The position numbers and the translations under genes were made by a program. The notes below the pieces were generated by a model. The model made no database searches. It saw only the letters and a list, made by a program, of their open reading frames with translations, and was not told the DNA's origin. Positions 1-42,713 of a stretch of 64,000 nucleotides of DNA are shown here, piece after piece. Each line of letters begins with the position of its first letter. The first letter of the stretch is position 1. This stretch comes from a virus. The stretch lies in IMG/VR virus record IMGVR_UViG_3300028840_004314, positions 1 to 64,000 of that record; one strand, 5' to 3'.

Positions 1-159
1 GGTGTGGACGAATCGGATCTTCGCGATATGTTGGAGATTATGCCACTACAACAGGACGTTCATCCTTCGGAAGAAGGGGATACACCTTCAGAGGTTTTTG
101 TTAACTACATCAAGTTTGCCCTGGGTGAAGGATTCTTGGATGGGGGTGGGTTCGCCTAA
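1..159 (+). CDS. 3' end of an acidic hypothetical protein (5'-truncated by the window)
   Basis: Frame 1 is open from base 1 (GVDESDLRDMLE...GGGFA) to TAA 157-159, which overlaps the next ATG (TAATG). Confidence 0.7.
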   Translation, partial: GVDESDLRDMLEIMPLQQDVHPSEEGDTPSEVFVNYIKFALGEGFLDGGGFA

Positions 160-509
160 TGATCAAAGACTTGCTACAAATCTTGTTAGAAGGCCAAGGC
201 CTATCAGAAGCCCACCGGGATCTGTTCCAGCCAGACAAAAGGGAACAGGAGGTGTACTACCTGGGTGGATTGCACATCCCTTTGGAAATAGTAATCTACT
301 GGAACAGGCCTTTGGAGGGATTGGAGAAGGATATGTTGTATCCCTTCATCCTATCCTTGGCGAGAACAGAATCGGAAGGGATCCCAAAACTAGGGGCCCC
401 ACTAATAGAAGGGATTGTAGATGCGTCGATGAATGTGGAGAGTGTTAACCCTTCGGGCGGTATCGAAGCGGTTATGGAGATTCTTATCAAGAGTGCCACC
501 AAGGAGTAG
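159..509 (+). CDS. Hypothetical protein with leader and EAHRDLF tag (putative internal head protein)
   Basis: MIKDLLQILLEGQGLSE-AHRDLFQP; shares KDMLYPFIL / KDEILYPFVL with the next ORF. Confidence 0.75.
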   Translation: MIKDLLQILLEGQGLSEAHRDLFQPDKREQEVYYLGGLHIPLEIVIYWNRPLEGLEKDMLYPFILSLARTESEGIPKLGAPLIEGIVDASMNVESVNPSGGIEAVMEILIKSATKE

Positions 510-512
510 ATT

Positions 513-1187
513 GTGAGCCAGGAACTACTACAAAAACTATTGGAAGCACATCGAGACCTCTTCAAGCCTGGACAGGTACCGGAGGACATGCACTTCTTTG
601 TACTACCCGAGGCGGAGTTCGCCTTCACGGACGGGTTGTCTCTGGTGATTGATGAGAGGGAGGAAAACAGGCGATTCTCCAAGGATGAAATACTCTACCC
701 GTTTGTACTGTATGCCAATCCACATTTTACTGGGCAAGTCCTAGTAAGAGGTTATTTTGATGATGCTGGTTTTGTTCATACTATCACCAAAATGGAGGAT
801 AAGGAGTTACTTGTCCAAGGACTGTTTGAGCAGATGACCCCCGTCGAAAGGAACGCGACGGAGGTTCCGGAGGCGGTCCAGGAGGCCCACCGGGATCTTT
901 TCAAGCGTATGTCTAAGGAAGAGGCAGACCAAATCGAGGATACGACGGAGGTTTGGTTGCAGGATAATGAGTACATGGATATGTACAAGATGGTGGACGA
1001 TGGTGAAGGGCACGCCTCCTTGTATCTTGTGGAGCATCCGAGTATGGAGGAAGAACTGATAGCCAAGTTTGAGTATGGGGGAGCAGGTGTAACGGATGTA
1101 GTGGAGATGGATCAGGTGGCTGTACTGAATGCCATCTCTGGATTTTTCACAGGTGGGGCCACCAATTACAACGAGCCACCAGTGTAG
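513..1187 (+). CDS. Acidic hypothetical protein with two EAHRDLF tags
   Basis: GTG start after AAGGAG; LLE-AHRDLFKP at 543 and VQE-AHRDLFKR at 882. Confidence 0.8.
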   Translation: MSQELLQKLLEAHRDLFKPGQVPEDMHFFVLPEAEFAFTDGLSLVIDEREENRRFSKDEILYPFVLYANPHFTGQVLVRGYFDDAGFVHTITKMEDKELLVQGLFEQMTPVERNATEVPEAVQEAHRDLFKRMSKEEADQIEDTTEVWLQDNEYMDMYKMVDDGEGHASLYLVEHPSMEEELIAKFEYGGAGVTDVVEMDQVAVLNAISGFFTGGATNYNEPPV

Positions 1188-1215
1188 CTTTTACTTCTTT
1201 TTGAAAGGGTGTACG

Positions 1216-1704
1216 ATGAAGCGAATGTTTATGTGTGCAGTATTGATTGTGCTACTGACAGGAGGTTGTGGCGAACAGATCTCAGCCGTTAGGGAGGAGA
1301 TTAGGGATCCCAACAGTCCTACCCAAAAGGTCGTTGAGGACATCAACAAGATCGGGGAGACGATTGAGCCTATTGTGAAGATCGTCGAGAAGACTCCTTG
1401 GGGAGCCCCCGTGTCCCTGGTTTTTAATGGTGTGATGGGTGCCGTGGCCTTCTTGTATCAGCAGAGACGCAAAAAGGAACGCAAGGCATTACAGGGAACT
1501 GTGGCATCGTTACAGGTTCTTAAGTCCAGTTTGGCAGCCGCGAGTCCTACCAAGAATTTGATTAAGGAAGCGTGTAACGTCATTCAGGACGCGGAGATCC
1601 AGGCGGAGGTTGCGAAACTCCGGGCCGACCCCACCACTAAGATATTGGTGGACAATGCCCTGGCGGACATGGCGATTGCGACCAAAACGCCGACTACACA
1701 GTAG
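1216..1704 (+). CDS. Putative lipoprotein/membrane protein
   Basis: MKR plus hydrophobic stretch plus LTGG-C lipobox-like site; second hydrophobic segment followed by QRRKK. Confidence 0.7.
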   Translation: MKRMFMCAVLIVLLTGGCGEQISAVREEIRDPNSPTQKVVEDINKIGETIEPIVKIVEKTPWGAPVSLVFNGVMGAVAFLYQQRRKKERKALQGTVASLQVLKSSLAAASPTKNLIKEACNVIQDAEIQAEVAKLRADPTTKILVDNALADMAIATKTPTTQ

Positions 1705-1725
1705 AATACTTTTCTTTTCTTGGCA

Positions 1726-1762: not shown

Positions 1763-1786
1763 CCTTGGGTGATGGGAGTAACAACC

Positions 1787-2711: not shown

Positions 2712-2714
2712 ATC

Positions 2715-3128
2715 ATGACGGTCAGTAGGGAAAGTGTAATCAACTATGTGATGACGGGACAGAAGCCGGAAGAGTCTGGTGTCCCTGACAATAATCTGCA
2801 GGAACACAACATGCAGGATTCCTTGCCTAACATTCCTCCTTCAGATAGGGGACCAGGTGGGCCTAAATCGTCGAGCGATGCCTGGTCCCCAGTTTTTGAA
2901 ACCACATTGGAGGCCATCCTGGAGTATGTACAGACACACGGACGTCGATGTAACTACAAGATGATTGAACGGATGGCGTCCAAGGCTCTGGGGAAGAAGA
3001 GTGACATGGAGGAGAAAGTCCAGGAGGTTATGGAGCCGAAGACCACCCCTAGTGCAACGGAAACCAAACAAACCATGTCCGAGAATGTGGTGGATCACCT
3101 GGACACCCTGTTGAAGGCCTTGTCGTAA
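2715..3128 (+). CDS. Hypothetical protein
   Basis: ORF with GGAG RBS, coupled to the next gene. Confidence 0.65.
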   Translation: MTVSRESVINYVMTGQKPEESGVPDNNLQEHNMQDSLPNIPPSDRGPGGPKSSSDAWSPVFETTLEAILEYVQTHGRRCNYKMIERMASKALGKKSDMEEKVQEVMEPKTTPSATETKQTMSENVVDHLDTLLKALS

Positions 3129-3856
3129 TGAGCGATCTGTTGACCACATTATTGGAAGCCCATTCAGACCTTTTCCAGCCAATGCCGGAGAAGGAATGGA
3201 TCGAACTTCTTCTTGAACAGGATGGGTGGACTAGGAACAAGGATGGAACTATCTCTGTAGACGGAGATGTGAATTTATCCAGTTGGGATTTCATTAGAAT
3301 TCCTATGAAGTTCAAGGAGGTTACGGGTAGTTTCAATGTGGCGAGCAACAGTTTGGAAACCTTGGAGGGATGTCCAAAAGTGGTTGGTGGATCCTTCATA
3401 TGTTCGTACAATATGTTGGATGACTTGAAGGGAGGGCCACAGGCGGTTGGGCTTCACTACAAGTGTGACAACGCTATGTTGACTTCCTTGGATGGGTCTC
3501 CATCTCGTATAATTGGTGGCTTTGATTGTCGTTTCAACAATTTGGAAACCCTGGAAGGTGGTCCGGATTATGTGGAGGCGGATTTTCTTTGTGCCTCCAA
3601 TCAACTCACCAATTTGGAGGGAGGACCACTGGAGGTGGGTGGGTCTTTGGATGTGAATGATAACGAACTGACCAGTTTGGAAGGGGCCCCGAGACGTATT
3701 GGACGGTATGTGTATCTTCGAAATAACAAATTGACCTCCTTGGAAGGCCTACCAGCGGAGGTGTATCCGAGCCAGTTCAAGAGTTTGAACTACAATCCAG
3801 CGTCTCGGGAAGAGTTACTATCAACTATTGGATTTGACAATGAACACGCAGATTGA
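3128..3856 (+). CDS. Phage LRR-like repeat protein with leader and EAHSDLF tag
   Basis: MSDLLTTLLE-AHSDLFQPMPEKE; about seven LxSLEGxPxxVGGxFxCxxN repeats. Confidence 0.85.
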   Translation: MSDLLTTLLEAHSDLFQPMPEKEWIELLLEQDGWTRNKDGTISVDGDVNLSSWDFIRIPMKFKEVTGSFNVASNSLETLEGCPKVVGGSFICSYNMLDDLKGGPQAVGLHYKCDNAMLTSLDGSPSRIIGGFDCRFNNLETLEGGPDYVEADFLCASNQLTNLEGGPLEVGGSLDVNDNELTSLEGAPRRIGRYVYLRNNKLTSLEGLPAEVYPSQFKSLNYNPASREELLSTIGFDNEHAD

Positions 3857-4211
3857 ACTAGTACAAAGAGTGTGCGAAGCTGAAGGAAGATTTAACAACA
3901 CATCCTACGAGTCAACTGTACGGCAGGCGTCGGAGTGTTTGAACAAGAAGCAGTATGGACGTTGTGTAGAACTGTTAAGCACTCTACCTACCAACAAAGA
4001 ACTGTTACAACAACTGATAGAAAACCTCAAGGGCAAGTCAGTGTACAGTACACTAAAGAAGTTGGAAAAAGGTCGGATTGATAACAAATATCAGAAACTA
4101 AAAGCCTTGTCATCCCTGTTAACACATACTATAATAGAATGTGAGAAGGGTAATTTTCATTACCGTCCATTGATCATTTATCTGTATGAAAGAATAGGAG
4201 CCGCCATGTAA
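3840..4211 (+). CDS. Hypothetical helical protein
   Basis: Leader-like MNTQIELVQRVCE-A; coupled ORF. Confidence 0.65.
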   Translation: MNTQIELVQRVCEAEGRFNNTSYESTVRQASECLNKKQYGRCVELLSTLPTNKELLQQLIENLKGKSVYSTLKKLEKGRIDNKYQKLKALSSLLTHTIIECEKGNFHYRPLIIYLYERIGAAM

Positions 4212-4525
4212 TGAAAGATTTGTTGGATAATCTGTTGGAGGCCCACAGGGATGTATTCTCTCCTGAAAACCTTCCCCCCGAGGAACAGGACAAGTGGGAG
4301 AAGGATCAAGTCATGTCTAACTGGGAGCCGGAGGATATTGATACCTTGGCTCGTGGTGTTTTGAATCAGATGCGTAGGGCCATGGAAGCGGTGATGAAGG
4401 AAAAGTGGGACGAGGCCGTACGGTTGTATCCACAACAAGTACTGTCAGCTATCGCCCTTACCCTGGATGAACGTGGATGGGATATAGCTCCACCCGACAA
4501 CATAGAGGACTACCTGGACGTTTAG
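4211..4525 (+). CDS. Small acidic protein with leader and EAHRDVF tag
   Basis: MKDLLDNLLE-AHRDVFSP. Confidence 0.8.
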   Translation: MKDLLDNLLEAHRDVFSPENLPPEEQDKWEKDQVMSNWEPEDIDTLARGVLNQMRRAMEAVMKEKWDEAVRLYPQQVLSAIALTLDERGWDIAPPDNIEDYLDV

Positions 4526-4526: not shown

Positions 4527-5873
4527 ATGCTAGATCTACCCTTTACAGACATATGGGAACAAGCCGCCCCCGCCGCCCCTACGAGGCCGACGGAGGTACC
4601 TGTCACTCCGCGGACGCCCAGGAAACGTCCTCCCAGTCCTATTAAGCCAGTACCTCGTAAACGTCCCAAGCCCAAAGGGGAGAACCGGGACGTAGAGCTG
4701 TTTAAGCGGAGTCGGGAAAACAAGGCCCCGGCGGTGGAGAACTCCTTACTCGGTCGCCTGCGTTCCATCATGGAGATGGCGTTTGATCCTGGAAGGTTTC
4801 CTGACTTTGTTGATCCTGGCAAGCGTGATTGGATCGAGACCGGGGACGAGGAGTTGGACAAGATCCTTCCCAACCTCACCAACACCGAGCAGACCTACTT
4901 GGAGATGGTTACCAGTGACAGTTATCAGAGGATAGTTTCCAGGTTGGAACAATACACTGGTCTGGAAGCGGACGAATTACAGTTACCCTCTGTGTTTAGT
5001 TTGTGTGCTCAAACCATGGAGAAGACTACGGAGTTGGAGAAGGCTCACCAAAGGGAGTTGGAAGACGTAGCCCTGGAGCTTGTACTAGGATTGGATGAAT
5101 ACAAAATCGTTCATGAAGCCTGGTTGAATGGTGAGGTGGAGTTTGACGTTCGCTTCAGTGAGTATGGTATGGAGTTGCCAGAGGGAGGTCCACAGGAACA
5201 GGACCAGGAACTCACCGACGAGGAAGAGATGAACGTGGATCTTACGGATGAGTTGGAAGATCTGGATGATGAGGGTCTGAAGAGAAGGGTGGCCAACATT
5301 CTTACTCAGGGCAGTGCCAGTAACAAGTTGTACTTGTTTAACATGGTGATGGACACTATCAAGAAGATGGATGAGGATCTTCCCCAGTTGTATGGTGTAA
5401 TCGCCGTGTGTGCCCAGCTAGGGTACTTCGTAGTGCCCTTCGGTTATGAGGAGATGGCCAAAGACAATACAATGATAGGGACGGAAGAAGTTACACCTAA
5501 GGATGACAATTATGTAATCAAGGCCCGTGGGGCCTTTTTCCCATTGTTGGTCAGTGAGTTGGTGAAAGGAATAGAGGAGTGGATCTCAATCCGTGAAACC
5601 ACTGGCCAACACGAAGAACAAGACACCCTGGAGAAGGAAACTCAGGATCTTATTGTAGGACCTGAGGTGTACAACAAGGTGGCTTCCATGGTTCCCACCG
5701 AGGACAGGGAACTACTTCCTTTGATTCGGAAGTATCTGTTGGATTTGGACGTGGAGGATATCCGAGACCTTTTGGGTGGTGACGAACAAATCATGAAGGA
5801 ACTTATTCAACGGGCCAGGGAGGCCTGGGACGCGTATGTCGATCAAAAAGAAGAATTGGAAGAACCTAACTAA
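4527..5873 (+). CDS. Large acidic hypothetical protein (putative internal head protein)
   Basis: 448 aa; Pro/Arg/Lys-rich N-terminal linker with IWE and IME candidate cleavage sites. Confidence 0.75.
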   Translation: MLDLPFTDIWEQAAPAAPTRPTEVPVTPRTPRKRPPSPIKPVPRKRPKPKGENRDVELFKRSRENKAPAVENSLLGRLRSIMEMAFDPGRFPDFVDPGKRDWIETGDEELDKILPNLTNTEQTYLEMVTSDSYQRIVSRLEQYTGLEADELQLPSVFSLCAQTMEKTTELEKAHQRELEDVALELVLGLDEYKIVHEAWLNGEVEFDVRFSEYGMELPEGGPQEQDQELTDEEEMNVDLTDELEDLDDEGLKRRVANILTQGSASNKLYLFNMVMDTIKKMDEDLPQLYGVIAVCAQLGYFVVPFGYEEMAKDNTMIGTEEVTPKDDNYVIKARGAFFPLLVSELVKGIEEWISIRETTGQHEEQDTLEKETQDLIVGPEVYNKVASMVPTEDRELLPLIRKYLLDLDVEDIRDLLGGDEQIMKELIQRAREAWDAYVDQKEELEEPN

Positions 5874-5888
5874 TTGGGAGCTTTAATC

Positions 5889-6518
5889 ATGTCGGATTTT
5901 AAAGATGCCGTTGAATTCATGACAGATGAAATTGAGAATCAGGCCAAACTCCTGGAGGACTCCAAGTTGAATGAGTCCGAGGACAAACCCAAGGACAAGG
6001 AAGTGGACGAGAAGAAGAAGGCTCCCAAGTGCAAGAAGTGTGGTGCCACCCACTGGCCGTTCCAGAAATGTGGGGCCAAGAAGAAGGGCAAGGACGACAA
6101 GAAGGAAGAGAAGCCCAAGAAGAAGTCCAAGAAGGACATGGAAGAGCGTCGGGCCGCCTGGAAGAAACGTCTGGCCGAGCGTCGTCGCAGGATCAAGGAG
6201 GAGGCCATGGACTCCGAGGACGACTATGTCGAGCCCACGGATGAAAAGAAGGAATGTGACGAGGAGAAACTTCCCTGTGGGTGTATGGGAAAGTGCACCT
6301 GCGAAGAGAAAAAGGAGTGTGACGAGAGCAAGGTCAACGAGGAAGCCGACTCCAAGGAGAAGCAACGCAACGAGAAGCTTCTGAAGGGCGAGATCGTTTA
6401 TGAGGAGTTCGTCAAGGGCTGCTTAGGTGGCCTGGCGGAAGTCTCCATCGTTGAAGGGGCCCTCGTACTGAAGAACGACCATGGAAAGGAAGTGAAGTTC
6501 GATCTTCCAAAGGAGTAG
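5889..6518 (+). CDS. Lys/Glu-rich low-complexity protein with Cys clusters (prohead-core-like)
   Basis: Highly charged; CKKC..H....C and CGCMGKCTC; LLE/LNE/IKE/VNE sites; C/G-ending codon bias like the capsid gene. Confidence 0.7.
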   Translation: MSDFKDAVEFMTDEIENQAKLLEDSKLNESEDKPKDKEVDEKKKAPKCKKCGATHWPFQKCGAKKKGKDDKKEEKPKKKSKKDMEERRAAWKKRLAERRRRIKEEAMDSEDDYVEPTDEKKECDEEKLPCGCMGKCTCEEKKECDESKVNEEADSKEKQRNEKLLKGEIVYEEFVKGCLGGLAEVSIVEGALVLKNDHGKEVKFDLPKE

Positions 6519-6575
6519 GAGACACACGTTCGGTAGTACAACCTTTTACAATCACCATGACAGGAGTGTAAAATC

Positions 6576-6950
6576 ATGGCTTTAGCAAATACAATGGTGA
6601 CATACCAGTCCGCCGGAAGTGATCCTGGTGTAATCAAGCAGGCCTACGTTCCGTTGGAATCTGGGGCTACCACCTACACAATTGTGGAGGCAGTGACAGG
6701 GGCCCAGATTCAGGTTCTGTCCATCGCCATTGATACTAACGTGGCCTCCAAGGCGGAGTTTAAATCCCAGGCGGACGTCATCGCTTCGTTCACCATGCAA
6801 CAGAACACCAATGTGTGGAAACACTCCGACAACTCGGAGCGTCCTTTGTTCTGTACGAACACGGGAAACGCCTTACTGCTCACCATGTCAGGGGCCGTCA
6901 ACGCGGGAGGCGTGTATGTACAATGGAGGGAACGTACGCCCACCTCGTAG
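6576..6950 (+). CDS. Small beta-rich virion-type protein
   Basis: AGGAG RBS; beta-strand-rich 124 aa. Confidence 0.7.
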   Translation: MALANTMVTYQSAGSDPGVIKQAYVPLESGATTYTIVEAVTGAQIQVLSIAIDTNVASKAEFKSQADVIASFTMQQNTNVWKHSDNSERPLFCTNTGNALLLTMSGAVNAGGVYVQWRERTPTS

Positions 6951-6999
6951 TTGATCTTTTAGTCATTCTATTACCGTGGGTCATTTTTTGGAGCGCATC

Positions 7000-9147
7000 A
7001 TGCGGAAAGACATTGTAGATATCCTAGTCGATGGTGGAGTTAAGTTGGTTCATGAATCCGCCCATCACATTACAAAGGTTCACCGTACAAAGGTGAACGA
7101 ACAGGGTGTGGATGAAGAGCCATTGAAGCTCCCCGCCTCCGAGGACGTTCCCATGGGAGACGATATCCCTACTGATGAGGAGGTACCTCCAACGGGTGGT
7201 ATACCTGAGGAGGAGAAAGAGCAGGAGCCAGTTAGCAAACGATACCTCGGAAAGGCCGGGGACAACTACCTGTACTTCGTTACGAAACAGAACGACGGGG
7301 ATCAGGTGGAAGATATGCAGATACTGAATCAGGATGAGGAAGTAGTGTACAGTGCGGCCGACGCCGACGAGGATTTCTCCAACTTTGACGAGTTTCTCTT
7401 GCATGCCATTCACAACACCGAGATGGACGACGTCGCCAAGGACGTGTACGACGAGTTCATCTATCCGAAGTTGGTTGAACCCGAGATGCCCGAGGACGCT
7501 CTGGCTATGGGCGATGAAGAGGAGGGGCCGATGGATGATGCGGGTCCTGGTCCCTCCAGGTCCAGGAAACCTTCCAGGTTGGGTCCGATCGGTAAAAAGG
7601 GCCCCTTAAGCGGACCTAAGGGTGGACCAGAGGGTGGACCGGAGGAGGGCCCCTCCTTAGGTGGGCCTAAATCCCCGACACCACCCATGAAGGATGAAGA
7701 GGGTCCCGAGGGTGGGCCGAGAAGTCCGGAGAAGCCACCTGTGCCCGAGCCTGAAATGGACGAGCCTCCAATTGGTGAGCCCGAGCCCGAGGAGAAACCT
7801 CGTCGTCGGCCTCGTAGACGTCCTCCGACTTCACCAAAGTCCTTTGGACCGGACCTTCGTCCCAGGGAGTCCAGGAGACGTGGTCGAAGAGTGAAGGAGG
7901 CCCATCGTGATTCATTTGAACCAGACGAGATCGAACTTCCTCAGGCGCTTCACCAGGCCATTATGAGCCTTCGGAACGATCCGGAGTTACAGGCTGTCGG
8001 TATTGGTGATACAGCCACGGATGAGGGTATTTCCATGTCAGTGGAGTACCTTCTTCAAAATGGATTACAGTCCATGGATTCTTTGTTGGACAACACAGGA
8101 GGAGATCCCTATAATCTTCTTCCCACGGAGGACGAGGCTGATAACATGGAACCCGAAAGTTGGGATCCCATGCAGTTTGCCTCTGTGCAGAAGGGCGTGA
8201 AGAAGATCACTCAAACAGTGTACAAAGCCTTGGAGGACTCTTGGGACGAGTTGCAGCAATATGATCCTCAGACGGTGGGTGTAGAGGTGTACGACATACT
8301 CCATACGTCTGATGATTCGGAGTACGACGACGAGGAGGATGGGGATTGGACCCAGGAGAATGAACGCCGGAAAAAGATGAACGAGATCTTTTATGGTAAG
8401 CAGGACGAAGGTCCAACCCTTTCGGATATGCCCAAACCCTTGGTGGATGCCCTGAAAAAGATCAAGTCGGATCCGGAGCTTCAGACGTTGGGTGTAGGTG
8501 ATACTGCCACGGACGAAGGTATTTTCCATGCCATCGCCTACATTTTTGAAGAGGGGTTGGACGGTTTCAATACATTACTCCAAACGGAGTCCGGTGAGTT
8601 GATGGATCCGTATAACCTTCTTCCGACTGAGCAGGAGGCCAAGGATGCCGAGCTGTCCGATTACGATCCTACAAGGTATCCTTCTGTACAGAAAGGAATG
8701 AAGAAGATAACACAGATGTTGCAGGCAGGTTTGGAGAAGAGCTGGAGTGGGTTGGAGACCTCCGGGTTGGATGGTAATGAAATACTCCACGTTCTGTACA
8801 GTTGGTTTCACTTTGGAAGTGAAGAGGACGACGAGGAGGAGGCCGCTCCGGAGTTTGAAAGTAGGAAACGTCCTACTAAGGAGAGTCGTGTAAACGAGGA
8901 GCGTTACACATATTCCGGACCCACTGGTGACAACCACTACTTCCTGGACTTCAACGACGCCGAAGAGGAAATGATGGTGACGGATGACAAGGGCAACTCC
9001 TTGATCTCGGGCACTTATGGAACGAAGGGAGAGACGTATACGATCCAGAGTCCCCACGCTGTGGCCAAGTTGGTGTTGGATTTGTTCCAAGAGGAGGACG
9101 AGAAGGTATCAGCCGGATGGAGACTTATGAAGAGGCGGGTATGTTGA
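7000..9147 (+). CDS. Multi-domain acidic protein (putative polyprotein) with an internal ~164-aa duplication and an EAHRDSF tag
   Basis: Two copies of DPELQxxGxGDTATDEGI...DPYNLLPTE...SVQKGxKKITQ; basic linkers ending VKE, MNE, VNE. Confidence 0.8.
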   Translation: MRKDIVDILVDGGVKLVHESAHHITKVHRTKVNEQGVDEEPLKLPASEDVPMGDDIPTDEEVPPTGGIPEEEKEQEPVSKRYLGKAGDNYLYFVTKQNDGDQVEDMQILNQDEEVVYSAADADEDFSNFDEFLLHAIHNTEMDDVAKDVYDEFIYPKLVEPEMPEDALAMGDEEEGPMDDAGPGPSRSRKPSRLGPIGKKGPLSGPKGGPEGGPEEGPSLGGPKSPTPPMKDEEGPEGGPRSPEKPPVPEPEMDEPPIGEPEPEEKPRRRPRRRPPTSPKSFGPDLRPRESRRRGRRVKEAHRDSFEPDEIELPQALHQAIMSLRNDPELQAVGIGDTATDEGISMSVEYLLQNGLQSMDSLLDNTGGDPYNLLPTEDEADNMEPESWDPMQFASVQKGVKKITQTVYKALEDSWDELQQYDPQTVGVEVYDILHTSDDSEYDDEEDGDWTQENERRKKMNEIFYGKQDEGPTLSDMPKPLVDALKKIKSDPELQTLGVGDTATDEGIFHAIAYIFEEGLDGFNTLLQTESGELMDPYNLLPTEQEAKDAELSDYDPTRYPSVQKGMKKITQMLQAGLEKSWSGLETSGLDGNEILHVLYSWFHFGSEEDDEEEAAPEFESRKRPTKESRVNEERYTYSGPTGDNHYFLDFNDAEEEMMVTDDKGNSLISGTYGTKGETYTIQSPHAVAKLVLDLFQEEDEKVSAGWRLMKRRVC

Positions 9148-10849: not shown

Positions 10850-12715
10850 ATGAAAGAGCAGTTATTTGAAACCAGTTTCGTGAAGGCCGACATACTTGAA
10901 TCTGATTCGGCGAAGCTTCCCAAGGGTGTCCTGTGTCAGGGTGTGTGGCCGATTTGCAACATCGGTAAATTGAACCACAACAATCGGATGTACGAGAAGG
11001 ACGTTTACGAGAGGGTGATCGCAAACGCCCTGATTACCGAGAAGATGAAGAACAGGACCCTGTACGGTGAACCCGAGCATCCTCAGGAGACCCAGTCGTC
11101 CTTGGATCGTACTTCTCACATCGTCACCGACATGTGGATCGATGAGAAAACCGACCGCGTGATGAACAGGATTGAAGTCCTGAACACCCCTGGTGGTCAG
11201 CTCATCAATACACTCCTGGAGGCAGGGTGCCTTGTGGGTGTATCCACACGGGCCGAGGGAGAACTGGAGGAGGTTCGCGAAGGTCAGAAAGAACCTTACA
11301 TGAGAGTCGTTCCGGAGTCGTACAATTATGTAACCACGGACTTCACGGCCGATCCCAGCACACTTGGGGCCATTCCTGTCCAAGTGGAGAAGAACGTCGT
11401 GAACCAGGTACAGGAGGCCTTGAAGGAAGGTAAAGTGGACAAACGCTTTGCCTGTTCCTTGCTGGAGTCCTGTAAGAGCAAGGAGGCGAAGACTCTTCTG
11501 GAAACCGTCCAGGAAAAGGAGGAGCCCACGGAGAAGGAGCCTACCAACGAGAAAGATGAATCCCCCTGGCGTAAGCTGAAGGTGGGAGACAAAGTGAAGT
11601 ACGAAGGAAAGGAGTACTCCGTCAAAGGTATTTCATTGGAGGAAAGCACCGTGGATATTTCAACCGATGATGGAACGGTGGTATCCGTCAATGATCCCGA
11701 CTCACTTGTCGTGATCACACCTCCTGATGGATCTGCTGTACCAGTTACTGATGAACCTCCATCATCACCCCCAGTGGACCTGGAGGACGTCGTTCCTCCA
11801 GGTCCCGATATTGACGTGGCCATGGAACCTCCTGGAGTACCCGAGGAGGACCTTGAGGCCGAATTGGAACCCGAAGGCCCCTCCGGACCAGAAGCCCTAG
11901 GCCTGGACCTGGAAGAGCCGGAGGAGGTTCCTGAGCTCGAAGAGGAGCCAGAGGAGGAGGAAGAGGACGAAGAGGAGATGAACGACAGTAAGAAAGCCTC
12001 CTCTGGTGATGACAAATTGGACGAGACGGACGATCAGAAGGCCAAGGAGTCCAAGACTCCCGCGTCGGACCTAACCAAGGAGATATTGTCCAACAAGATC
12101 GACAAGGCCCTGGCTGAAGCCCAACGAGACAAGGCTGTTGAAGTGGCCAGTGAGATTGAGGAACAACGTGTGAAGGAAATCGCCATCCTCACCAAGAAGC
12201 TGAACGCCCTCCGCGAAGAGTTGAAACCGGAGGACAGGAGTGTACTGGACCAGGCCCTGGCGGAGAACGAGGCCCTTCAGAAGAAGATCCAGGAAATGAA
12301 GAAACAGGCGAAGCTTCTTATGGAGAAGATCAGTAAGATCAAGGAGTCCTTCGCCGCTCAGTTGTCGACCGTTAAGGAAGGCGTCGTGAAGATGGAGGAG
12401 GACTTCAAGAAGAAGTTGGAAGAGGAGAAGAAGAGGTTGGCAGAGGAAGCCCACCAGGTATTTATGGAGAGATACGCCAAGTATAAAATCGAAACGTCAG
12501 GTCTGCCCGTGACGGAGAAGGTTCGAACACTTATCGAATCCTGCGACACGCCAGAGGAGGCGGATGAGTTGGTGGAACATGTACGCGATACGCTTCGCGA
12601 GAGTGCACTTCACTCCGAAAAGTTGGAGAGCGTGGATGTGGACGCCATGAAGGAAAACTCCGGCCAAGTTTACATTGATAAGGTGGTCGGGGATTTCATG
12701 GACGCGATGATATAG
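10850..12715 (+). CDS. T4 gp21-like prohead protease fused to an acidic, coiled-coil scaffold
   Basis: NHNNRMY, YGEPEHP, GVSTRAEG and DFTADPS motifs; C-terminal E/K coiled coil; directly upstream of the capsid gene. Confidence 0.9.
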   Translation: MKEQLFETSFVKADILESDSAKLPKGVLCQGVWPICNIGKLNHNNRMYEKDVYERVIANALITEKMKNRTLYGEPEHPQETQSSLDRTSHIVTDMWIDEKTDRVMNRIEVLNTPGGQLINTLLEAGCLVGVSTRAEGELEEVREGQKEPYMRVVPESYNYVTTDFTADPSTLGAIPVQVEKNVVNQVQEALKEGKVDKRFACSLLESCKSKEAKTLLETVQEKEEPTEKEPTNEKDESPWRKLKVGDKVKYEGKEYSVKGISLEESTVDISTDDGTVVSVNDPDSLVVITPPDGSAVPVTDEPPSSPPVDLEDVVPPGPDIDVAMEPPGVPEEDLEAELEPEGPSGPEALGLDLEEPEEVPELEEEPEEEEEDEEEMNDSKKASSGDDKLDETDDQKAKESKTPASDLTKEILSNKIDKALAEAQRDKAVEVASEIEEQRVKEIAILTKKLNALREELKPEDRSVLDQALAENEALQKKIQEMKKQAKLLMEKISKIKESFAAQLSTVKEGVVKMEEDFKKKLEEEKKRLAEEAHQVFMERYAKYKIETSGLPVTEKVRTLIESCDTPEEADELVEHVRDTLRESALHSEKLESVDVDAMKENSGQVYIDKVVGDFMDAMI

Positions 12716-12766: not shown

Positions 12767-14305
12767 ATGAAGAAATCGACCATTCAAAATCTGGCTGAGG
12801 CCAGGTATCAGCAGATCCTGCAGCAGCAGGAGCAGCTCATCGAGGGGTGGAAGCCCATCCTCAACGCGTGCAACAAGTGGAATGAGGAACACCGCGGAGA
12901 GCCCCTGGATAAGCACCAGATGAGAAACATCGCACAGTGCCTGGAGAACGCCTACATCGAGGGCTCCTTCCGCCAGCACAGCAAGATGTTTGAGGCCACC
13001 ACCGAGGACAACATCAGCTTCCTGGGCGTTCAGCTGCCCGTGATTGCTGCCATCGTTCCCTCGCTGGTGCTGAATGACGTCGCCGTTGTGCAGGCCTTGG
13101 ACCGTCGAACCGGTTCCGTGTTCTATCTGGACGTTAAGGCCGGCTCCACCAAGGGTGGTGTCACGAGCGGAGACGTTCTGATGGATGCCAAGACTGGCCA
13201 TGCCAGGACCAAGACCAACCGCCTGTACGCCGCGGCCATCGTCGAGAACGAGACCCTGGTGGACGAGGGTGGTGGAGGTGCCGCCACGTACACTGGTACG
13301 GTGGATTTCGCCCCCGGGTTGATCAACCTGGAGTACGTGACCATCAAGGATTCCAGTGGAACCGTGCTGGGCCGTTCCAACAGCTCAGGTACGATCACCG
13401 ATGCCACCTCCGGCAGTACGGGTGTTACCGGTACCATCACCGCGGCAGGTGTGTACAGCATCGACTTCAGTGCCACGTCTCTCGGCTCTGGAAATGGTGC
13501 CACGATCACCTACCACTACCAGTACGACCTGCCCACCGATGCCTATGGCAACAATGATGGTGTCCCCCAGATGGACATCAACATCAGCTCGAGTGCCATC
13601 GAGTCCATCGACTTCCCCGTGAGGTCGCGGTACAGCATCGGTGCCATGTTCGACCTGAAGAAGGCACATGGCATGGACCTCGAGTCCGAGGTTGTGAAGT
13701 ACCTGGGTGGCGAAGTCCGCTGGACCGTGGATCATTATGGCATCGACCTGATCGAGACCGCGGCCACTGGTGGGTATGATCCCATCGCGGGGGCCAATTT
13801 CAGCCCCGCGACCGCGATCACGGCCTGGAACGCCAACGTCGGCTCCGGTGAGCCCTGGATCTGGAAAAAGGAGGAGTTCATAGATCGTATCTATGAAGGC
13901 TCCAACAACATCCAGTCCAAGACGCTGCGCGCGATCGGTAATTTCATTATCGCCGATCTGAACGTGTGTCGTGTGATCAGCCAGCACAGCAAGTTCAAGG
14001 GCAATGCCAATATCACTGGCAAGAAGGCCCCGACTGGCCCGGTGAACATCGGTACGCTGGACAACCGATTCACCGTCGTTCAGGATCCCTTCCTGACCAC
14101 CAATCGTTACCTGGTGGGCTACAAGGGCGATCACTTCTTGAACGCGGGCATGATTTACGCCCCGTACATCCCGCTGTTCGCCAGCCCCACGCTGACGACC
14201 GCGGACCTGATCGCCCAGAAGGGCTTCATGAGCTCGGCTGGGTTCAAGATCACGAACGCCGGTATGTTCACCTACGGCTCCATCAGCGGTACCTACTTTA
14301 GCTAG
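12767..14305 (+). CDS. Major capsid protein (T4 gp23-like)
   Basis: VQALDRRTGSVFYL, DLKKAHGMDLESE, AGMIYAPYIPL; strong codon bias; candidate maturation site MFE-ATT. Confidence 0.95.
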   Translation: MKKSTIQNLAEARYQQILQQQEQLIEGWKPILNACNKWNEEHRGEPLDKHQMRNIAQCLENAYIEGSFRQHSKMFEATTEDNISFLGVQLPVIAAIVPSLVLNDVAVVQALDRRTGSVFYLDVKAGSTKGGVTSGDVLMDAKTGHARTKTNRLYAAAIVENETLVDEGGGGAATYTGTVDFAPGLINLEYVTIKDSSGTVLGRSNSSGTITDATSGSTGVTGTITAAGVYSIDFSATSLGSGNGATITYHYQYDLPTDAYGNNDGVPQMDINISSSAIESIDFPVRSRYSIGAMFDLKKAHGMDLESEVVKYLGGEVRWTVDHYGIDLIETAATGGYDPIAGANFSPATAITAWNANVGSGEPWIWKKEEFIDRIYEGSNNIQSKTLRAIGNFIIADLNVCRVISQHSKFKGNANITGKKAPTGPVNIGTLDNRFTVVQDPFLTTNRYLVGYKGDHFLNAGMIYAPYIPLFASPTLTTADLIAQKGFMSSAGFKITNAGMFTYGSISGTYFS

Positions 14306-25245: not shown

Positions 25246-25877
25246 TTAAACACATCGAACAATTAATGGAAGCCCATAGGGACATCTTCAAGCCAATGCC
25301 AGAGGATGAACAGAGAAACATCTGGACTGACTTCCTGGCACAAATGGTGATATTGGAGGGATGGAAACTCACAGATCATGGAATAGAAGTTCCAGGTACT
25401 GTGAATTTCGGGGAGGATTTTACAGATGTGGAGGAACTACCCTTTAAATTCTGGACTGTAGGAGGCGATTTTCTCATATACAATGGAGTGTTGGCCACCT
25501 TGGCAGGTTGTCCAGTTCAAGTAAAGAAAACTTTCGACTGTGAAGGTAACATGCTGACTTCGTTGAAGGGTGGACCGAAATTTGTAGGGGCTCATTACGA
25601 ATGTGGTTGGAATGTATTGAATTCCTTGGAAGGGGCCCCGGAGTTTATACCTGGAAACTTCTCTTGTAGCAATAATAACTTGGTTGATTTACGAGGTGGT
25701 CCAAGGGTGGTGATGGGTGACTATCGTTGTGAAAACTGTAACATAAGATCCTTCAAAGGGGCCCCAGAATATGTGGGCGGGAATTTCTACTATGCTAAGA
25801 ATTCTGTGGATCTGGAGGATTACAAAGAACTACAGAAATGGTGGCTTCAACTTCGCCGAGAAGGTTTGAAGATATGA
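25242..25877 (+). CDS. Phage LRR-like repeat protein with leader and EAHRDIF tag
   Basis: MIKHIEQLME-AHRDIFKPMPEDE; LxSLxGxPxxVGxxFxCxxN repeats. Confidence 0.85.
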   Translation: MIKHIEQLMEAHRDIFKPMPEDEQRNIWTDFLAQMVILEGWKLTDHGIEVPGTVNFGEDFTDVEELPFKFWTVGGDFLIYNGVLATLAGCPVQVKKTFDCEGNMLTSLKGGPKFVGAHYECGWNVLNSLEGAPEFIPGNFSCSNNNLVDLRGGPRVVMGDYRCENCNIRSFKGAPEYVGGNFYYAKNSVDLEDYKELQKWWLQLRREGLKI

Positions 25878-39300: not shown

Positions 39301-40532
39301 TGGCCGTAGCTGCCCAATCTGTTCCTACTGGTTTACCAGGTGAATACAGTCTTCGTGTGAAGTTTGCGAACGACGACGATCTTGTTTTGGATCCTCGGGG
39401 TATTCGTGAACTCAGTATCACACACGACCTGAACAGAACACTTCCTTCCTTTAGGTTGAAGACGGAGGATGGTACTGGTATACTAAGCCATTTCACCAGC
39501 GTAGATGTCACGCGAACCATAACAATTGAAATTGGGAGTAAGTCGGGGGAATTGGATCCTTTTGTATCGTATACGTTCGACGACTATCGGAAGTTTCCAA
39601 ATTCCAATGACATCTATGACATTGAAGGGCTGTTGTCAGTACCTAATGTGTTTTCTCCTAGTTTCTGTAGGTCGTTTTCCTCCCCTAAGGCCGCCATCGA
39701 ACAGGTGGGTGCCGACATGGGAATGGATGAAGTAGTTGTAAGTTCCAGTCTGGATTACGATAGGAACATCGTACAGCCGGATTGGTCGAATGCCACCTTT
39801 CTGAATTATCTGTCCAGTACGGTGGTAGGGGCCTCCCAGGAGGCCGGGTACTATTATTTCATCCGCAAGGAGGACCAGAAACTTAAGTTGTTTTTCAAAC
39901 ACCTTGGAGAATTAGTTCACTCTCCAGTTAAGTACAATTTCGTGGTGGGATCCGCCTTCGAGACCAAAACCAAGAAGGGTGATACCGTTCAGTACTATCC
40001 AGTATGGAATTACCGCGTTGAGGAAAACCACCTGACGGTTGGAATCAAAGGCCTGACAAAACGTGGATACACGTATTTCGACTACGATACAGGAACCTTC
40101 AAATACAATGAAGTGAATTTGGATTCCTTCCCGTCCTGTGCGGAGGCCTTTCTGATATCCAAGGATGATGACGCCGGACGTTTTCTGGATGTAGATACAG
40201 GTCAGACAAGCGCATACACCTCGGACTTTGTGGGACAGGTAAAGGGAACACATTACAAGAGAACAAACAAACTCGTACGGATGTGGATAACGTCCTTTGG
40301 TTTAGGGGATCTACATTCTGGTGATACTATTCTGTTAAAGTGGACTATTGGTGTTCTTCCGAACAGTGAGATGGAGTACCAGTACCAGGGGTACTGGATG
40401 GTGGAGAAGGTGATACATAGGTTCGGTATGACTTGGATCTCCGAGATTCTACTTTGTAGGAATGGAGTAGATGTTGGGGATCTAAACACATCCTTGGAAG
40501 TCGCCAGTAGAGTTCAAAGGAAGAAGGTATAA
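39300..40532 (+). CDS. Baseplate hub (gp27/gpD-like)
   Basis: Q..WSN..FL, G...L..GD.I, YQGYWMVEKVIH. Confidence 0.75.
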   Translation: MAVAAQSVPTGLPGEYSLRVKFANDDDLVLDPRGIRELSITHDLNRTLPSFRLKTEDGTGILSHFTSVDVTRTITIEIGSKSGELDPFVSYTFDDYRKFPNSNDIYDIEGLLSVPNVFSPSFCRSFSSPKAAIEQVGADMGMDEVVVSSSLDYDRNIVQPDWSNATFLNYLSSTVVGASQEAGYYYFIRKEDQKLKLFFKHLGELVHSPVKYNFVVGSAFETKTKKGDTVQYYPVWNYRVEENHLTVGIKGLTKRGYTYFDYDTGTFKYNEVNLDSFPSCAEAFLISKDDDAGRFLDVDTGQTSAYTSDFVGQVKGTHYKRTNKLVRMWITSFGLGDLHSGDTILLKWTIGVLPNSEMEYQYQGYWMVEKVIHRFGMTWISEILLCRNGVDVGDLNTSLEVASRVQRKKV

Positions 40533-40807
40533 TGGCTTCAAAAAACATAGCTTGTTTAGGTGATGGGGCCACTCACTCGGGTTCTATTGTCACATCCGGG
40601 CAGGATGGGAGCTTCACGCTCAACGGGTTGGAAGTCGCCGTGGAAGGGGCCCGATTTTCTTGTAACATAAAGAAACATGGAACGACGGATATTACACCGG
40701 CTTCCACCACTACTGGTGCCAATGGGAAAGCCATCATAGGTACTGGTTCCGTGGCTGGCTGTGGGGCCGTGATAACGCCTCCGGATAGAAAGGCCTACAT
40801 AGGATGA
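40532..40807 (+). CDS. PAAR-domain spike tip protein
   Basis: IACLGD..TH.G, NG..VA..G...C...HG, GS...CGA.I. Confidence 0.9.
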   Translation: MASKNIACLGDGATHSGSIVTSGQDGSFTLNGLEVAVEGARFSCNIKKHGTTDITPASTTTGANGKAIIGTGSVAGCGAVITPPDRKAYIG

Positions 40808-41451
40808 GAGAGTTACTAGACATCTTATTTGAAGCTGACGAAAAGAAACGTCATCGGGATTTGTTTCGTCCTGTAACTCCGGAGGAACAGGATGAAATGT
40901 ACAAGGAGGAGGTTCGTGGATTTATCGAATGGGTTCAGGCTCTACCAGGTATTATAGTACATCGCGATGGTTCTTTGTCTACCAACGGAGATGTTAACAT
41001 AGCGGACTGGTTGGACGGATATACTGGCGGGGAAGAAGTGCAATTAGACGGACAACTTCCGTTCAAGTTTAGGTACGTTGGAGGAGATTTTGACTGTTCC
41101 CACTTACTTCTTCATACACTTAAGGGTTGTCCTAGAAATGTAGGAGGAAGTTTCTTTTGTGAACATAACAGTTTGGACTCTCTGGAAGGTGGTCCTAACA
41201 AAGTGGGAGGGATGTACGATTGTTCCGACAATGAATTAACTACTTTGTATGGTGTGGCAGACACGATTGGGGACAATCGAGTTTTTGACTGTTCAAATAA
41301 CGCGTTAGAGGAGATAGATGAACTTCCTTCAAATGTGGATGGTTGTGATGTGGTTGCCGGCGGTAATGTAGAGTATCAGAAGAGGATGGTCTACGACTAC
41401 TTCGGAGAGGATTACGACGAGGATGATGAAGATTGGGAGATAGAGGCGTAA
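40804..41451 (+). CDS. Phage LRR-like repeat protein with leader and HRDLF tag, inside the baseplate module
   Basis: MRELLDILFE-ADEKKR-HRDLFRPVTPEE; LxTLxGCPxxVGGxFxCxxN repeats. Confidence 0.85.
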   Translation: MRELLDILFEADEKKRHRDLFRPVTPEEQDEMYKEEVRGFIEWVQALPGIIVHRDGSLSTNGDVNIADWLDGYTGGEEVQLDGQLPFKFRYVGGDFDCSHLLLHTLKGCPRNVGGSFFCEHNSLDSLEGGPNKVGGMYDCSDNELTTLYGVADTIGDNRVFDCSNNALEEIDELPSNVDGCDVVAGGNVEYQKRMVYDYFGEDYDEDDEDWEIEA

Positions 41452-41729
41452 TGGAGAGGCCTGAGGAAAGTACTAAATTACAGCGGGTATGTAGTAAACG
41501 TACCATATGTGAAGTACATCGTCAGATAAAAGATTTGGTATTTTTCGATGGTGACAAAAAGGAGATTTTGGCTTTAGTGGATGAAGCCTTTGAGATGGGT
41601 GTGGCGATGACTAAGAAGTTGGTGGAGTACAAGTGTAGTTTGCCTGACTGGAAAAAGAACACCAACAAGGAGGAGATCGCCCGTATTCGGAAACTACGAT
41701 TGGAATTGGAACGTCATGACAATGGATGA
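41451..41729 (+). CDS. Small hypothetical protein
   Basis: RTICEVHRQI...EAFEMG..M.KKL.EYK; coupled. Confidence 0.65.
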   Translation: MERPEESTKLQRVCSKRTICEVHRQIKDLVFFDGDKKEILALVDEAFEMGVAMTKKLVEYKCSLPDWKKNTNKEEIARIRKLRLELERHDNG

Positions 41730-42414
41730 TCACAAGTTTACAGGAATGTACCGCGGAAAAGTACTGGCTACCGACGCCAATGAGTCCAACCAATATGGAC
41801 GGCTCAAGGTGGAGGTATATCCCATGATGTTGGGTAAAGCCACTGCCGTGGAACAAGGGAAACTGGGCAACACAGTTGAAGGAATGACTACATCACAAAT
41901 GCCTTGGGCTGTTCCTGCAACTCCACTCTTCTCTGGGGCTGGATCTGGACATGGTTGGTTCGCTGTACCTGAGGTAGGATCCTATGTGTTCGTGTTCTTT
42001 TTGGAGGGCGACATCAACCAACCAGTGTACTTTGCGGAGGCCCCCACGGGATCCCACGGACTACCGGCCTCCCGTACGACTAATTACCCTGCCAGGAGGG
42101 TCCTCCGGACCAAGGCTGGGTTGGAAGTCATCTTTGACGATACTGACACCCAGATCGATATAAAACAGCCTACAGGGTCGTACATTCGGTTGGACAGCGA
42201 TGGTAATATCAAGGTGGTAGCCACGGGAGATGTAGATGTACAATCGGAGGGTGACACAAACATAACATCTGAGGGTGATACACAAATAACGACAACTAAA
42301 AGTGCGAAGGTGAACTCCACAGAAGGGGTACAAGTTACAAGTGTAGGTCCCGTTACAGTAACATCTTCTTCCACAGTAACCATAACTGGAACAGCCGTGA
42401 GTATAAACACATGA
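41716..42414 (+). CDS. Baseplate central spike (gp5/VgrG-like OB fold plus beta-helix)
   Basis: YRGKV, GRLKV, WAVP, VPEVGS.V.V.F.EGD...PVY; Val/Thr beta repeats. Confidence 0.92.
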   Translation: MTMDDHKFTGMYRGKVLATDANESNQYGRLKVEVYPMMLGKATAVEQGKLGNTVEGMTTSQMPWAVPATPLFSGAGSGHGWFAVPEVGSYVFVFFLEGDINQPVYFAEAPTGSHGLPASRTTNYPARRVLRTKAGLEVIFDDTDTQIDIKQPTGSYIRLDSDGNIKVVATGDVDVQSEGDTNITSEGDTQITTTKSAKVNSTEGVQVTSVGPVTVTSSSTVTITGTAVSINT

Positions 42415-42713
42415 ACCTAATACAACAACTAATGGAAGCCGATGATGGACATCGCGAACTGTTTCGTCCTATGGACAGTAAGGAAGTACACAAGGCTGAT
42501 GCCAATATGTCTGTGGATGATCTAAACAGGGAGGCCAATAATGTGTATCAACAGTTTCGTTCGGAACTCATAGAGATGGTCAAACACATTGGGGAAGGTC
42601 GTGGGGAGAATTTGCTGGAAGGTGTGTGTGAATTTATCTACGAGGACAGGCAGGAAATCATTGATATGATCATCGAGGGACTGGGCAATCCTGGTATGTT
42701 TGGAGCAGGCTAA
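42411..42713 (+). CDS. Small helical protein with leader and HRELF tag
   Basis: MNLIQQLME-ADDG-HRELFRPMDSKE. Confidence 0.75.
   Translation: MNLIQQLMEADDGHRELFRPMDSKEVHKADANMSVDDLNREANNVYQQFRSELIEMVKHIGEGRGENLLEGVCEFIYEDRQEIIDMIIEGLGNPGMFGAG

Follow-up and report, generated by a model that had tools for sequence, protein, structure and literature searches.

A conserved peptide behind candidate head-protease sites as putative part of a load-and-cut cassette in uncultured T4-core myoviruses

The window analysed here, 64,000 nt of a viral genome, repeatedly encodes a short peptide, AHRDLFxP, shortly behind a hydrophobic-x-Glu sequence (Φ-x-E) on proteins that otherwise differ. What is directly supported is that the motif exists, is modular, goes with Φ-x-E, can be separated from the leader and is conserved at the peptide level. 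Our best explanation, which we hold with about even confidence, is that an amphipathic leader of 9-16 residues, Φ-x-E and the tag together make up a portable 'load-and-cut' cassette, by which a clade of uncultured T4-core myoviruses would equip accessory acidic proteins as head cargo. The tagged genes are given below with the protease and capsid genes (coordinates, strand, product; a slash marks the candidate site here and throughout).

1-159, +, C-terminal 52 codons of P0155, the tenth tagged protein, whose last 52 residues are identical to the translation of 1-159
159-509, +, t159, 116 aa, pI 4.6, leader MIKDLLQILLEGQGLSE, tag at 207-233, body 'module A'
513-1187, +, t513, 224 aa, two modules, N-terminal tag at 543-569
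2070-2711, +, LRR paralogue, 213 aa, tag at 2100-2126
3128-3856, +, t3128, LRR paralogue, 242 aa, tag at 3155-3181 (AHSDLFQP)
4211-4525, +, t4211, small orphan protein, 104 aa, pI 4.2, tag at 4238-4264
6976-9147, +, multi-domain acidic protein, 723 aa, internal tag at 7897-7923 (RRVKE/AHRDSFEP)
10850-12715, +, prohead protease-scaffold-like fusion, 621 aa (Pfam PF03420, E 2.7e-14)
12767-14305, +, gp23-like major capsid protein (tblastn matches to annotated major capsid proteins)
25242-25877, +, LRR paralogue, 211 aa, tag at 25269-25295, inserted between conserved head-completion/neck genes
40804-41451, +, LRR paralogue, 215 aa, tag at 40831-40872, inserted after the PAAR gene
42411-42713, +, small orphan protein, 100 aa, tag at 42435-42470, inserted between spike/hub and gp25-like wedge genes

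Ten copies of the AHRDLFxP type lie within ORFs on the + strand, with their Glu codons at 207, 543, 882, 2100, 3155, 4238, 7897, 25269, 40831 and 42435, exactly where the preliminary description had placed them. A genome-wide scan with its regular expression gives 10 six-frame matches, compared with a mean of 0.01 and a maximum of 1 in 200 shuffles of the 84,485-bp genome. No further copies are found in the 20 kb beyond the window. The initial count of ten copies on 9 proteins is correct for the window but misses a tenth protein with an eleventh copy just upstream of its start. This is P0155, which in its full form has 109 aa and begins MSDILSTLLE/AHEDIFKPMPHEEQ, so that its tag is located upstream of the window. 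For the ORF listed from 2046, ATG 2070 is the more likely start (MLNEIYDTLTE/AHRD).

Pairwise identity among 16 instances in 14 proteins of the lineage (window ORFs and close relatives) is 73% for the 8-residue core, 23% for the 10 residues before it and 9% for the 20 residues after it. The free synonymous variation reported before is borne out, as 55% of identical residue pairs within the 8-codon core differ in their codon. Moreover the DNA upstream of the tag is not conserved. Hence selection acts on the peptide. That the bodies belong to unrelated classes applies to most of them, which share the tag only, but t159 and the N-terminal half of t513 share a body and the four LRR proteins are paralogues. 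The predicted classes in the window and its relatives comprise LRR, β-rich module A, Zn-ribbon modules and helical orphans. The presumed cargo carrying the tag is small and acidic (pI 4.1-5.0).

AHRDLFxP is the variant found in this lineage of a broader motif, D-Φ-F-(K/Q)-P-(A/M)-(S/T)-x-x-E-Φ-x-x-R, of which uncultured phages show 89 instances distributed over 41 proteins, 39 near the N-terminus and 50 at internal module boundaries. D(-2), F(0) and K(+1) are near-invariant. What had been described as a '[MV]xxxE cap' behind the tag corresponds more closely to the capping box of a helix (S/T-x-x-E) plus a hydrophobic staple, with Pro ahead of it. A Φ-x-E occurs at most 9 residues upstream in 85 of the 89 instances, whereas 21.8 are expected (2000 randomisations, maximum 34), and in the window [LV]-x-E precedes all ten copies, in agreement with the hydrophobic-x-E rule proposed earlier. 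A few instances do not show an upstream Glu site, for example three QADD-IFKP copies in P0149; these count against a cassette. The distance from Glu to D-Φ-F varies between 0 and 9 residues across the family, including spacers of 8 residues in the LRR protein at 40804 (LFE/ADEKKRHRDLFRP) and of 6 residues in the protein at 42411 (LME/ADDGHRELFRP). Such variation is ill-suited to rigid binding in S' subsites and likewise speaks against a cassette. Pfam NUP50 (PF08911) was rejected as a relative of the motif: the window proteins give no match, and P0144 and P0148 reach 24-28 bits from summed weak stretches, none of which passes alone. We read the resemblance as convergence on F-x-x-A-S-x-E-E-Φ-x-x-R.

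The multi-part proteins of related phages carry the motif between modules, with 3-7 internal copies at module starts in P0143, P0144, P0145, P0149, P0154, P0157, P0158 and P0160 among others. We assume that these proteins are linked to head modules. In the window, t513 consists of module A, a low-confidence linker, a junction tag at 882-908 (VQE/AHRDLFKR) and module B, and its orthologue P0122 keeps both tags despite an overall identity of 37%. Module A is found alone in t159, P0126 and P0136 and fused to module B via VQE/AHRDLFK in t513 and P0122. In this comparison, modules joined at candidate protease sites also occur on their own, as in a polyprotein. The 723-aa protein has a Pro/Arg-rich linker ahead of its internal tag, at which a tandem domain repeat begins; the start of the second repeat (MNE/IFYG, about 8377-8397) is possibly a degenerate copy, and the basic linkers of this protein end in V/M-N-E on inspection. 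In L005, NVCE/DIFKP connects an LRR module with a conserved head/neck protein. Cassettes and bodies are shuffled throughout, one cassette residing on unrelated bodies and one body being combined with different cassette variants, which supports the earlier suggestion that the tag is interchangeable between cargoes.

The gp21-like protease assigned to 10850 is confirmed by Pfam, the Peptidase_S77 domain (PF03420) covering residues 23-147. H77 and S132 are invariant in an alignment of 7 relatives and are probably the catalytic residues. This protease is presumed to be the enzyme cutting at Φ-x-E. The neighbouring capsid protein matches T4 gp23 structures (E 5e-16) and contains a candidate maturation site, KMFE/ATTEDN, whose residues are invariant compared with the relative L001. 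Candidate Φ-x-E sites lacking the motif are present in the capsid protein and also in the 723-aa protein itself, so that the protease would be able to do without it, another point against the cassette.

Leaders in the window comprise 9-17 residues, being hydrophobic at positions 4, 5, 8 and 9 with Glu at about 10, and those of the MxxLLxxLLE type are found on 8 window ORFs with at least 5 body classes. This pattern agrees with the rules for the capsid-targeting sequence (CTS) of T4, which is 10-19 residues long with targeting determined at residues 4 and 7 and processing at 8 and 10 (PMC9026906). The leader thus resembles a CTS as a propeptide of that size common to unrelated proteins, with [LV]-x-E ahead of all ten tag copies and a Peptidase_S77 encoded by the phage, a comparison that does not apply to the AHRDLF tag. 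The tag was rejected as a CTS in the T4 sense, as its position is C-terminal to the candidate site throughout the window and for 85/89 instances family-wide. Leader and tag are separable elements. The L005 leader MF.QLYEQL occurs on tagged LRRs and on untagged orthologues of conserved head proteins, and in G001, a complete relative, similar leaders are present whereas the tag is absent. In L005-type LRRs the nearest Φ-x-E would leave a leader of 3-7 residues only, an observation unfavourable to a cassette.

In T4 the CTS is found on IPI-III and Alt and is removed by the gp21 protease (PMC9026906, PMC3012670, PMC5694885). Both systems share a leader of ~10 residues ending in hydrophobic-x-Glu (here hydrophobic at about 4 and 8, Glu at about 10) on unrelated, non-essential and fast-evolving proteins, together with a T4-type S77 protease and a gp23-like capsid protein. 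In contrast to T4, the conserved tag is positioned behind the site and would stay on the protein, surpasses the leader in conservation and also marks internal module junctions; no such element behind the site is mentioned in the T4 reviews consulted (PMC9026906, PMC3012670, PMC5694885). At least ten putative cargo proteins are present here compared with the handful named in T4 (IPI-III, Alt; PMC9026906). The cargo is moreover acidic whereas T4 internal proteins are basic, which is a point against the cassette. The preliminary remark that no described system has this form therefore holds for the part behind the site only, since the combination of leader and cleavage is already known from the T4 CTS system (PMC9026906, PMC5694885).

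The giant phages φKZ, 201φ2-1 and SPN3US, in which a gp21-like protease processes numerous head proteins behind Glu (PMC5694885, PMC9026906), are similar in having multi-site propeptides and paralogues with conserved N-termini and diverged bodies. Their sites, however, are A/S/G-x-E with 'extremely few other determinants' (PMC5694885, PMC9026906), while P3 is hydrophobic here, and their propeptides exceed 100 residues in contrast to a 14-residue conserved motif after the site.

Outside the phages, the tag is comparable to encapsulin cargo-loading peptides in being short and portable on diverse cargo. These peptides mark their cargo for enclosure in an HK97-fold shell; unlike the arrangement seen here they attach directly to the inner surface of the shell, mostly reside at the C-terminus and show no coupling to proteolysis.

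The preliminary description favoured an address label: (A)xxD-Φ-F-K-P would be exposed as a new N-terminus upon removal of the leader and act after packaging, be it in retention at the inner shell or portal, in ejection order or on a host target. We consider this unlikely. It would account for the position of the motif, always C-terminal to the candidate site and hence retained, for its presence at internal junctions where a targeting leader is not needed and for its far stronger conservation compared with the leader. The tag is also confined to accessory cargo and missing from leader-bearing conserved head proteins, and the candidate sites lacking the motif suggest that cleavage is independent of it. 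The distance of the new N-terminus to D-Φ-F, however, is not constant, G001 manages without the tag, and a candidate receptor is absent: a comparison of gene content with relatives did not reveal any dedicated-receptor gene co-occurring with the tag, which weighs on the cassette as well. In addition, the AF2 model of t3128 packs the tag against the LRR body rather than leaving it as a free end.

Secondly, the element might be a structural helix start without any signalling role. A cap derived from the 5' end of an ancestral LRR gene would have spread to new cargo genes through recombination on its downstream side and would be retained since it stabilises the first helix of each module, a combined scenario that we regard as quite improbable. 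Positions +2 to +8 (P-[AM]-S-x-x-E-Φ) represent a textbook capping box with hydrophobic staple, LRRs make up the majority of tagged proteins in relatives, and the evident cassette shuffling is in line with such a spread. The AF2 model of t3128 (pLDDT 95.9) comprises helix 2-11, loop 12-20 and helix 21-29; the tag region forms a confident helix-loop-helix on the LRR body (tag pLDDT 86-89), which would suit a structural cap and speaks against the cassette. The nearest solved folds are the LRRs of YopM/IpaH (TM about 0.6), and LRR domains of that type possess N-terminal helical caps. They lack sequence relation to the tag, though, and belong to bacterial type III secretion effectors, whereas the genes here are located in phage structural modules. 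A capping box moreover leaves the near-invariant D(-2), F(0) and K(+1) and the Φ-x-E link unexplained, the motif resides on body classes other than LRR, and 118 of the best 120 LRR homologues carry other N-termini.

A signal for loading at the tail tip or tube, analogous to the T6SS MIX/FIX markers or the N-terminal packing signals of contractile injection systems, is very improbable. Two of the ten tagged genes adjoin PAAR and spike/hub genes, but seven are located upstream of the protease gene, in a block that lies between portal and protease in relatives, and one among neck genes. At 25242, 40804 and 42411, the tagged genes are inserted in neck and baseplate modules syntenic with those of tag-less relatives, an arrangement that supports the cassette; in these relatives the baseplate genes are conserved without tag and inserts. 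The link to the candidate head-protease site holds family-wide. Equally remote is a host-directed short linear motif on ejected effectors such as the β-clamp-binding QL[SD]LF (Gln at 1, aliphatic at 2, Leu/Met at 4, Phe/Leu at 5): D-L-F fits positions 3-5, the clamp can be bound by the LF moiety alone (PMC11139829) and AF2 places the motif in a loop beside a helix, but Gln is replaced by H, E, A or D at position 1 and the aliphatic residue by R, E or D at position 2. In addition, 66/89 instances have I or V at position 4, Ile at this position having been the weaker inhibitor in one study quoted in a review (PMC11139829), and the conserved K-P-A-S-x-x-E is left unexplained.

Returning to the load-and-cut cassette, we propose three steps. 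By analogy with T4, the CTS-like leader would draw the precursor into the prohead core. The S77 protease-scaffold protein would then cut after Glu, both at N-termini and between modules, as suggested by the site statistics and the conserved site of the capsid protein. D-Φ-F-K-P and the capping-box helix would remain on the mature protein; their role, the weakest step of the model, would most likely be exerted before or at cleavage, as a docking and presentation element that, independently of the body, would leave the scissile bond accessible and tether the cargo to the protease or core. A function at this stage, or a purely structural one in starting the helix, agrees with the data as well as or better than a function after packaging. 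In this clade of myoviruses, such a cassette would serve LRR, ankyrin-like, Zn-ribbon and small orphan modules as head cargo.

The preliminary description had listed ten copies of a peptide tag, AHRDLFxP, each following the Glu of a candidate prohead-protease site Φ-x-E (Φ, hydrophobic). All ten are found at these Glu codons, on the plus strand and inside ORFs. Scanning the whole genome with its regular expression yields 10 six-frame matches versus 0.01 expected from shuffles, all of them inside the window and none in the remaining 20 kb. Synonymous codons vary freely as described: within the 8-codon core, different codons are used in 55% of identical residue pairs. Moreover the DNA upstream of the core differs between copies. 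Hence the copies do not represent a DNA repeat. Pairwise identity amounts to 73% in the core, 23% in the preceding 10 residues and 9% in the following 20 residues (16 instances in 14 proteins of the window lineage, comprising window ORFs and close relatives). The pI of all tagged proteins lies in the acidic range, at 4.1-5.0.

The structural module in the window is that of a myovirus whose head core is of the T4 type. The following features were assigned (slash, candidate cut):

1-159: end of an ORF, the C-terminus of database protein P0155 (109 aa), which starts with MSDILSTLLE/AHEDIFKP and thereby adds an eleventh copy shortly before the window
10850-12715: Peptidase_S77 (gp21-like) protease (Pfam, E 2.7e-14), continued in a long C-terminal fusion part that resembles a scaffold
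Directly after the protease gene: gp23-like major capsid protein (tblastn to annotated capsid proteins; T4 gp23 structures, E 5e-16)
After the capsid gene: neck genes
After the capsid gene: probable sheath and tube genes (by position and conservation)
Baseplate region: PAAR, spike/hub and gp25-like wedge genes

The virus record consists of one contig of 84,485 bp without end repeats, of which the window covers the first 64 kb. It starts inside a tagged gene and ends, past the window, inside an open ORF of 593 codons (82707-84485). Because both ends cut genes and no portal gene was recognised in the record, it is probably incomplete between its ends. Pfam and PHROGs gave no annotation for any non-LRR tagged body, nor for most neighbours and other genes of the window.

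The protease fusion comprises 621 aa in the window and 828-1433 aa in relatives (e.g. L001 7162-9987; L006 1331-5632). Its C-terminal part is long, variable, partly acidic and coiled-coil-like. This layout corresponds to that of herpesvirus, whereas T4 has separate gp21 and gp22. A Lys-rich protein encoded upstream of the protease (5889-6518) carries a conserved KCKKCG..HWPFQ.C knuckle; in the relative locus L001 this protein is part of a 695-aa fusion encoded between portal and protease (5021-7108). The major capsid gene of several relatives is apparently split into an N-terminal fragment and the remainder (L002 12528-14608; L005 94-1652 and 12478-12756; L010 8768-10058), with a small Cys-rich ORF between or beside them (e.g. 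L002 12888-13298). The arrangement points to an intron or to insertion of a homing endonuclease. The baseplate order in the window (40532-42713) is PAAR, tagged LRR, small ORF, spike/hub, tagged 100-aa ORF and gp25-like wedge. In the complete relative genome G001 it is hub, PAAR and wedge without inserts.

An exhaustive HMMER search with the tag profile over 1.84 billion representatives returned 29 proteins at E ≤ 1e-3. Many of these comprise 400-1100 aa and carry 3-7 copies internally, where modules begin; P0157 reads ...YIAE/DIFKPAGKKEILNRR.... The AHRDLF form is found on other bodies in a close relative (48-kb contig; P0122, P0128, P0136 and P0138). In relatives with 47-57% protease identity we observed variants, namely MIELLEKLTE-DLFKPY on ankyrin-like ORFs (L002), LLEKMLSIVNE-DSDLDSLFKP (L001/L003, and likewise in P0140, an LRR protein, and P0141, a non-LRR protein of the same NCBI contig) and MFSQLYEQLKGE-DIFKPKSEEEV on LRRs (L005). 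In total 89 motif instances in 41 proteins were collected, 39/89 of them N-terminal-proximal and 50/89 internal. The consensus, with Phe as position 0, is D(-2) [IVL](-1) F(0) K/Q(+1) P(+2) A/M(+3) S(+4) E(+7) [VLI](+8) R(+11). Positions +2 to +8 are predicted to be a classical helix start with Pro, capping box and hydrophobic staple.

In the six-frame translation of more distant T4-like loci (628 kb) the motif pattern gave zero false matches. Neither tag profile nor regular expression matched in G001 or in a second relative genome, G002. Scans of viral contigs with P0122, P0143 and an alignment of P0144/P0145/P0150 returned no relatives, and GenBank phages had no tblastn match to P0145 or P0157. 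The back-translated DNA pattern of E-[DN]-[IV]-F-K-P-A-S-x-x-E had five matches. One of the five is the motif in frame, without leader and without hydrophobic-x-E context.

In L002 (7354-7587 and 14684-14958) the tag heads ankyrin-repeat-like ORFs, one of which has 38 codons only, with another ankyrin-like ORF behind it; this may be due to a frameshift or to a break in the assembly. The Pfam NUP50 model (PF08911) reaches 24-28 bits across the tag motif of multi-copy proteins (P0144 residues 211-240, P0148 residues 169-193). The eukaryotic Nup50 segment F-x-x-A-S-E-E-V-L-K-x-R resembles I-F-K-P-A-S-K-E-E-V-x-x-R of the tag. We rejected this resemblance, which is probably due to convergence.

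The proposed enrichment of the tag behind hydrophobic-x-E holds throughout the collection. [LIVMF]-x-E is located ≤ 9 residues upstream in 85/89 instances, compared to a mean of 21.8 and a maximum of 34 at random positions within the same proteins (2000 trials). The spacing from Φ-x-E to the motif ranges from 0 to 9 residues and is lineage-typical, with 1-2 residues in multi-module proteins and 4 in the window phage. The capsid protein exhibits an invariant Φ-x-E/ATTEDN slightly before the region aligning with mature T4 gp23, which argues for a T4-like protease specificity. T4 propeptides comprise 10-19 residues; their targeting depends on residues 4 and 7, and their processing on residues 8 and 10 (PMC9026906; also PMC5694885, PMC3012670). 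By sequence comparison, the window leaders of the type MxxLLxxLLE fit these rules. A second cleavage site after an acidic pair (x-E-E/Φ) was rejected since P3 is not hydrophobic there.

Leader, i.e. the residues before the site, and tag are separate elements. The L005 leader MF.QLYEQL is found on tagged LRRs and also on orthologues, without tag, of two conserved head proteins of the window, w4527 and w10094. G001 (126.5 kb) has similar leaders (MFQSLLQSVKE, MFMSLLQHIQE) without tag and without LRR genes. In the window itself, several head-module ORFs show leader-like starts but are untagged, e.g. MINELYDILE/S and MDPYLTLVKRLSLME/A.

The bodies had been described as several unrelated classes. 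This stands insofar as several classes share the tag alone: it is the sole common part among the C-half of t513, t4211 and t42411 (tagged window ORFs named by their start) and the C-part of a 723-aa protein. The four LRR proteins are paralogues, and one body, module A, is common to t159 and the N-half of t513. The AF2 model of t3128 is an LRR solenoid (pLDDT 95.9) with YopM/IpaH LRRs as closest folds. That of t513 is poor (pLDDT 53.6), suggesting with low confidence a β-rich module A. Hence AF2 gives nothing firm on the tag outside LRR bodies. For t4211 the Atlas search yielded a single lead only (score 0.75).

The 723-aa protein (6976-9147) is acidic and has a tandem-duplicated domain of ~164 aa (DPELQ..GxGDTATDEGI) with long Pro/Gly/Arg-rich linkers. 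Repeat 1 begins at the tag, repeat 2 at MNE/IFYG. The LRR family of t3128 (3128-3856) has 2121 matches, the best 120 of which (P0001-P0120) mostly show other leaders of the MKHLKLFE-SF or MKYLKLYE-GF type. These likewise end in hydrophobic-x-Glu followed by Phe. Judged by sequence, they may represent a further family of CTS-like leaders on this LRR body (CTS, the T4 capsid-targeting sequence removed by gp21). A Vibrio phage LRR homologue was rejected as tagged cargo; it has neither leader nor tag and adjoins a helicase gene.

The cassette is exchanged between bodies. P0128 and P0126 have in common a 29-residue cassette alone, including an EGQGLS insert, while P0136 combines the body of P0126 with a short cassette. 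Module A is found alone or joined via a junction tag to module B, the C-half body of t513. P0128 as stand-alone module B was ruled out, its similarity to t513 stopping ~16 residues past the tag. In L005, NVCE/DIFKP joins a conserved head/neck protein to an LRR. The tagged genes 25242, 40804 and 42411 interrupt modules whose other genes are syntenic with those of tag-less relatives.

From the sequences, the best-supported reading is a portable cassette by which accessory head cargo would be loaded and cut. The leader would be a CTS analogue, Φ-x-E the protease site and the tag a cargo-side element retained on the mature protein. An action of the tag before or at cleavage, by docking or presentation, would fit its constant position beside the site; however, the spacing varies and some sites lack the motif. 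A purely structural helix cap is supported in part. The consensus includes a capping box and AF2 places the tag on the LRR as a confident helix-loop-helix, but D, F and K as well as the link to Φ-x-E are left unexplained. The preliminary description had favoured a second signal, exposed by cleavage and acting after packaging. Here D-Φ-F-K-P with the capping-box helix would be a true second address label, the exposed new N-terminus of each cargo module after cutting. It would govern later fate (retention on inner shell or portal, tail exit order, or capture of a conserved host protein) and be interchangeable among LRR, ankyrin, Zn-ribbon and orphan modules in several lineages of uncultured phages. 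We consider this unlikely. A tail-tip loading signal or a host motif such as the β-clamp box fits poorly, the β-clamp reading being rejected on motif comparison. Gene comparison with relatives revealed no candidate receptor gene co-occurring with the tag.

The logic of leader plus site is the known T4 system. A full-text literature search with the motif strings gave nothing relevant and returned no conserved post-site motif. We rate as new the conserved motif after the protease site, in a variant of the T4 scheme. To our knowledge, choice, holding and delivery of phage-injected proteins are understood for the T4 CTS only, and up to loading only. The tag is a compact, highly conserved, portable element of 14 residues at what would be the mature end of many unrelated cargo modules, multi-module junctions among them. 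The motif pattern provides a search handle listing candidate injected effectors (LRR, ankyrin binders) in uncultured phages. Should the tag serve in docking or presentation, it would define a minimal cassette by which foreign proteins could be packaged and released in T4-type capsids. Should it act after cleavage, phage cargo would have its first signal for sorting or ejection.
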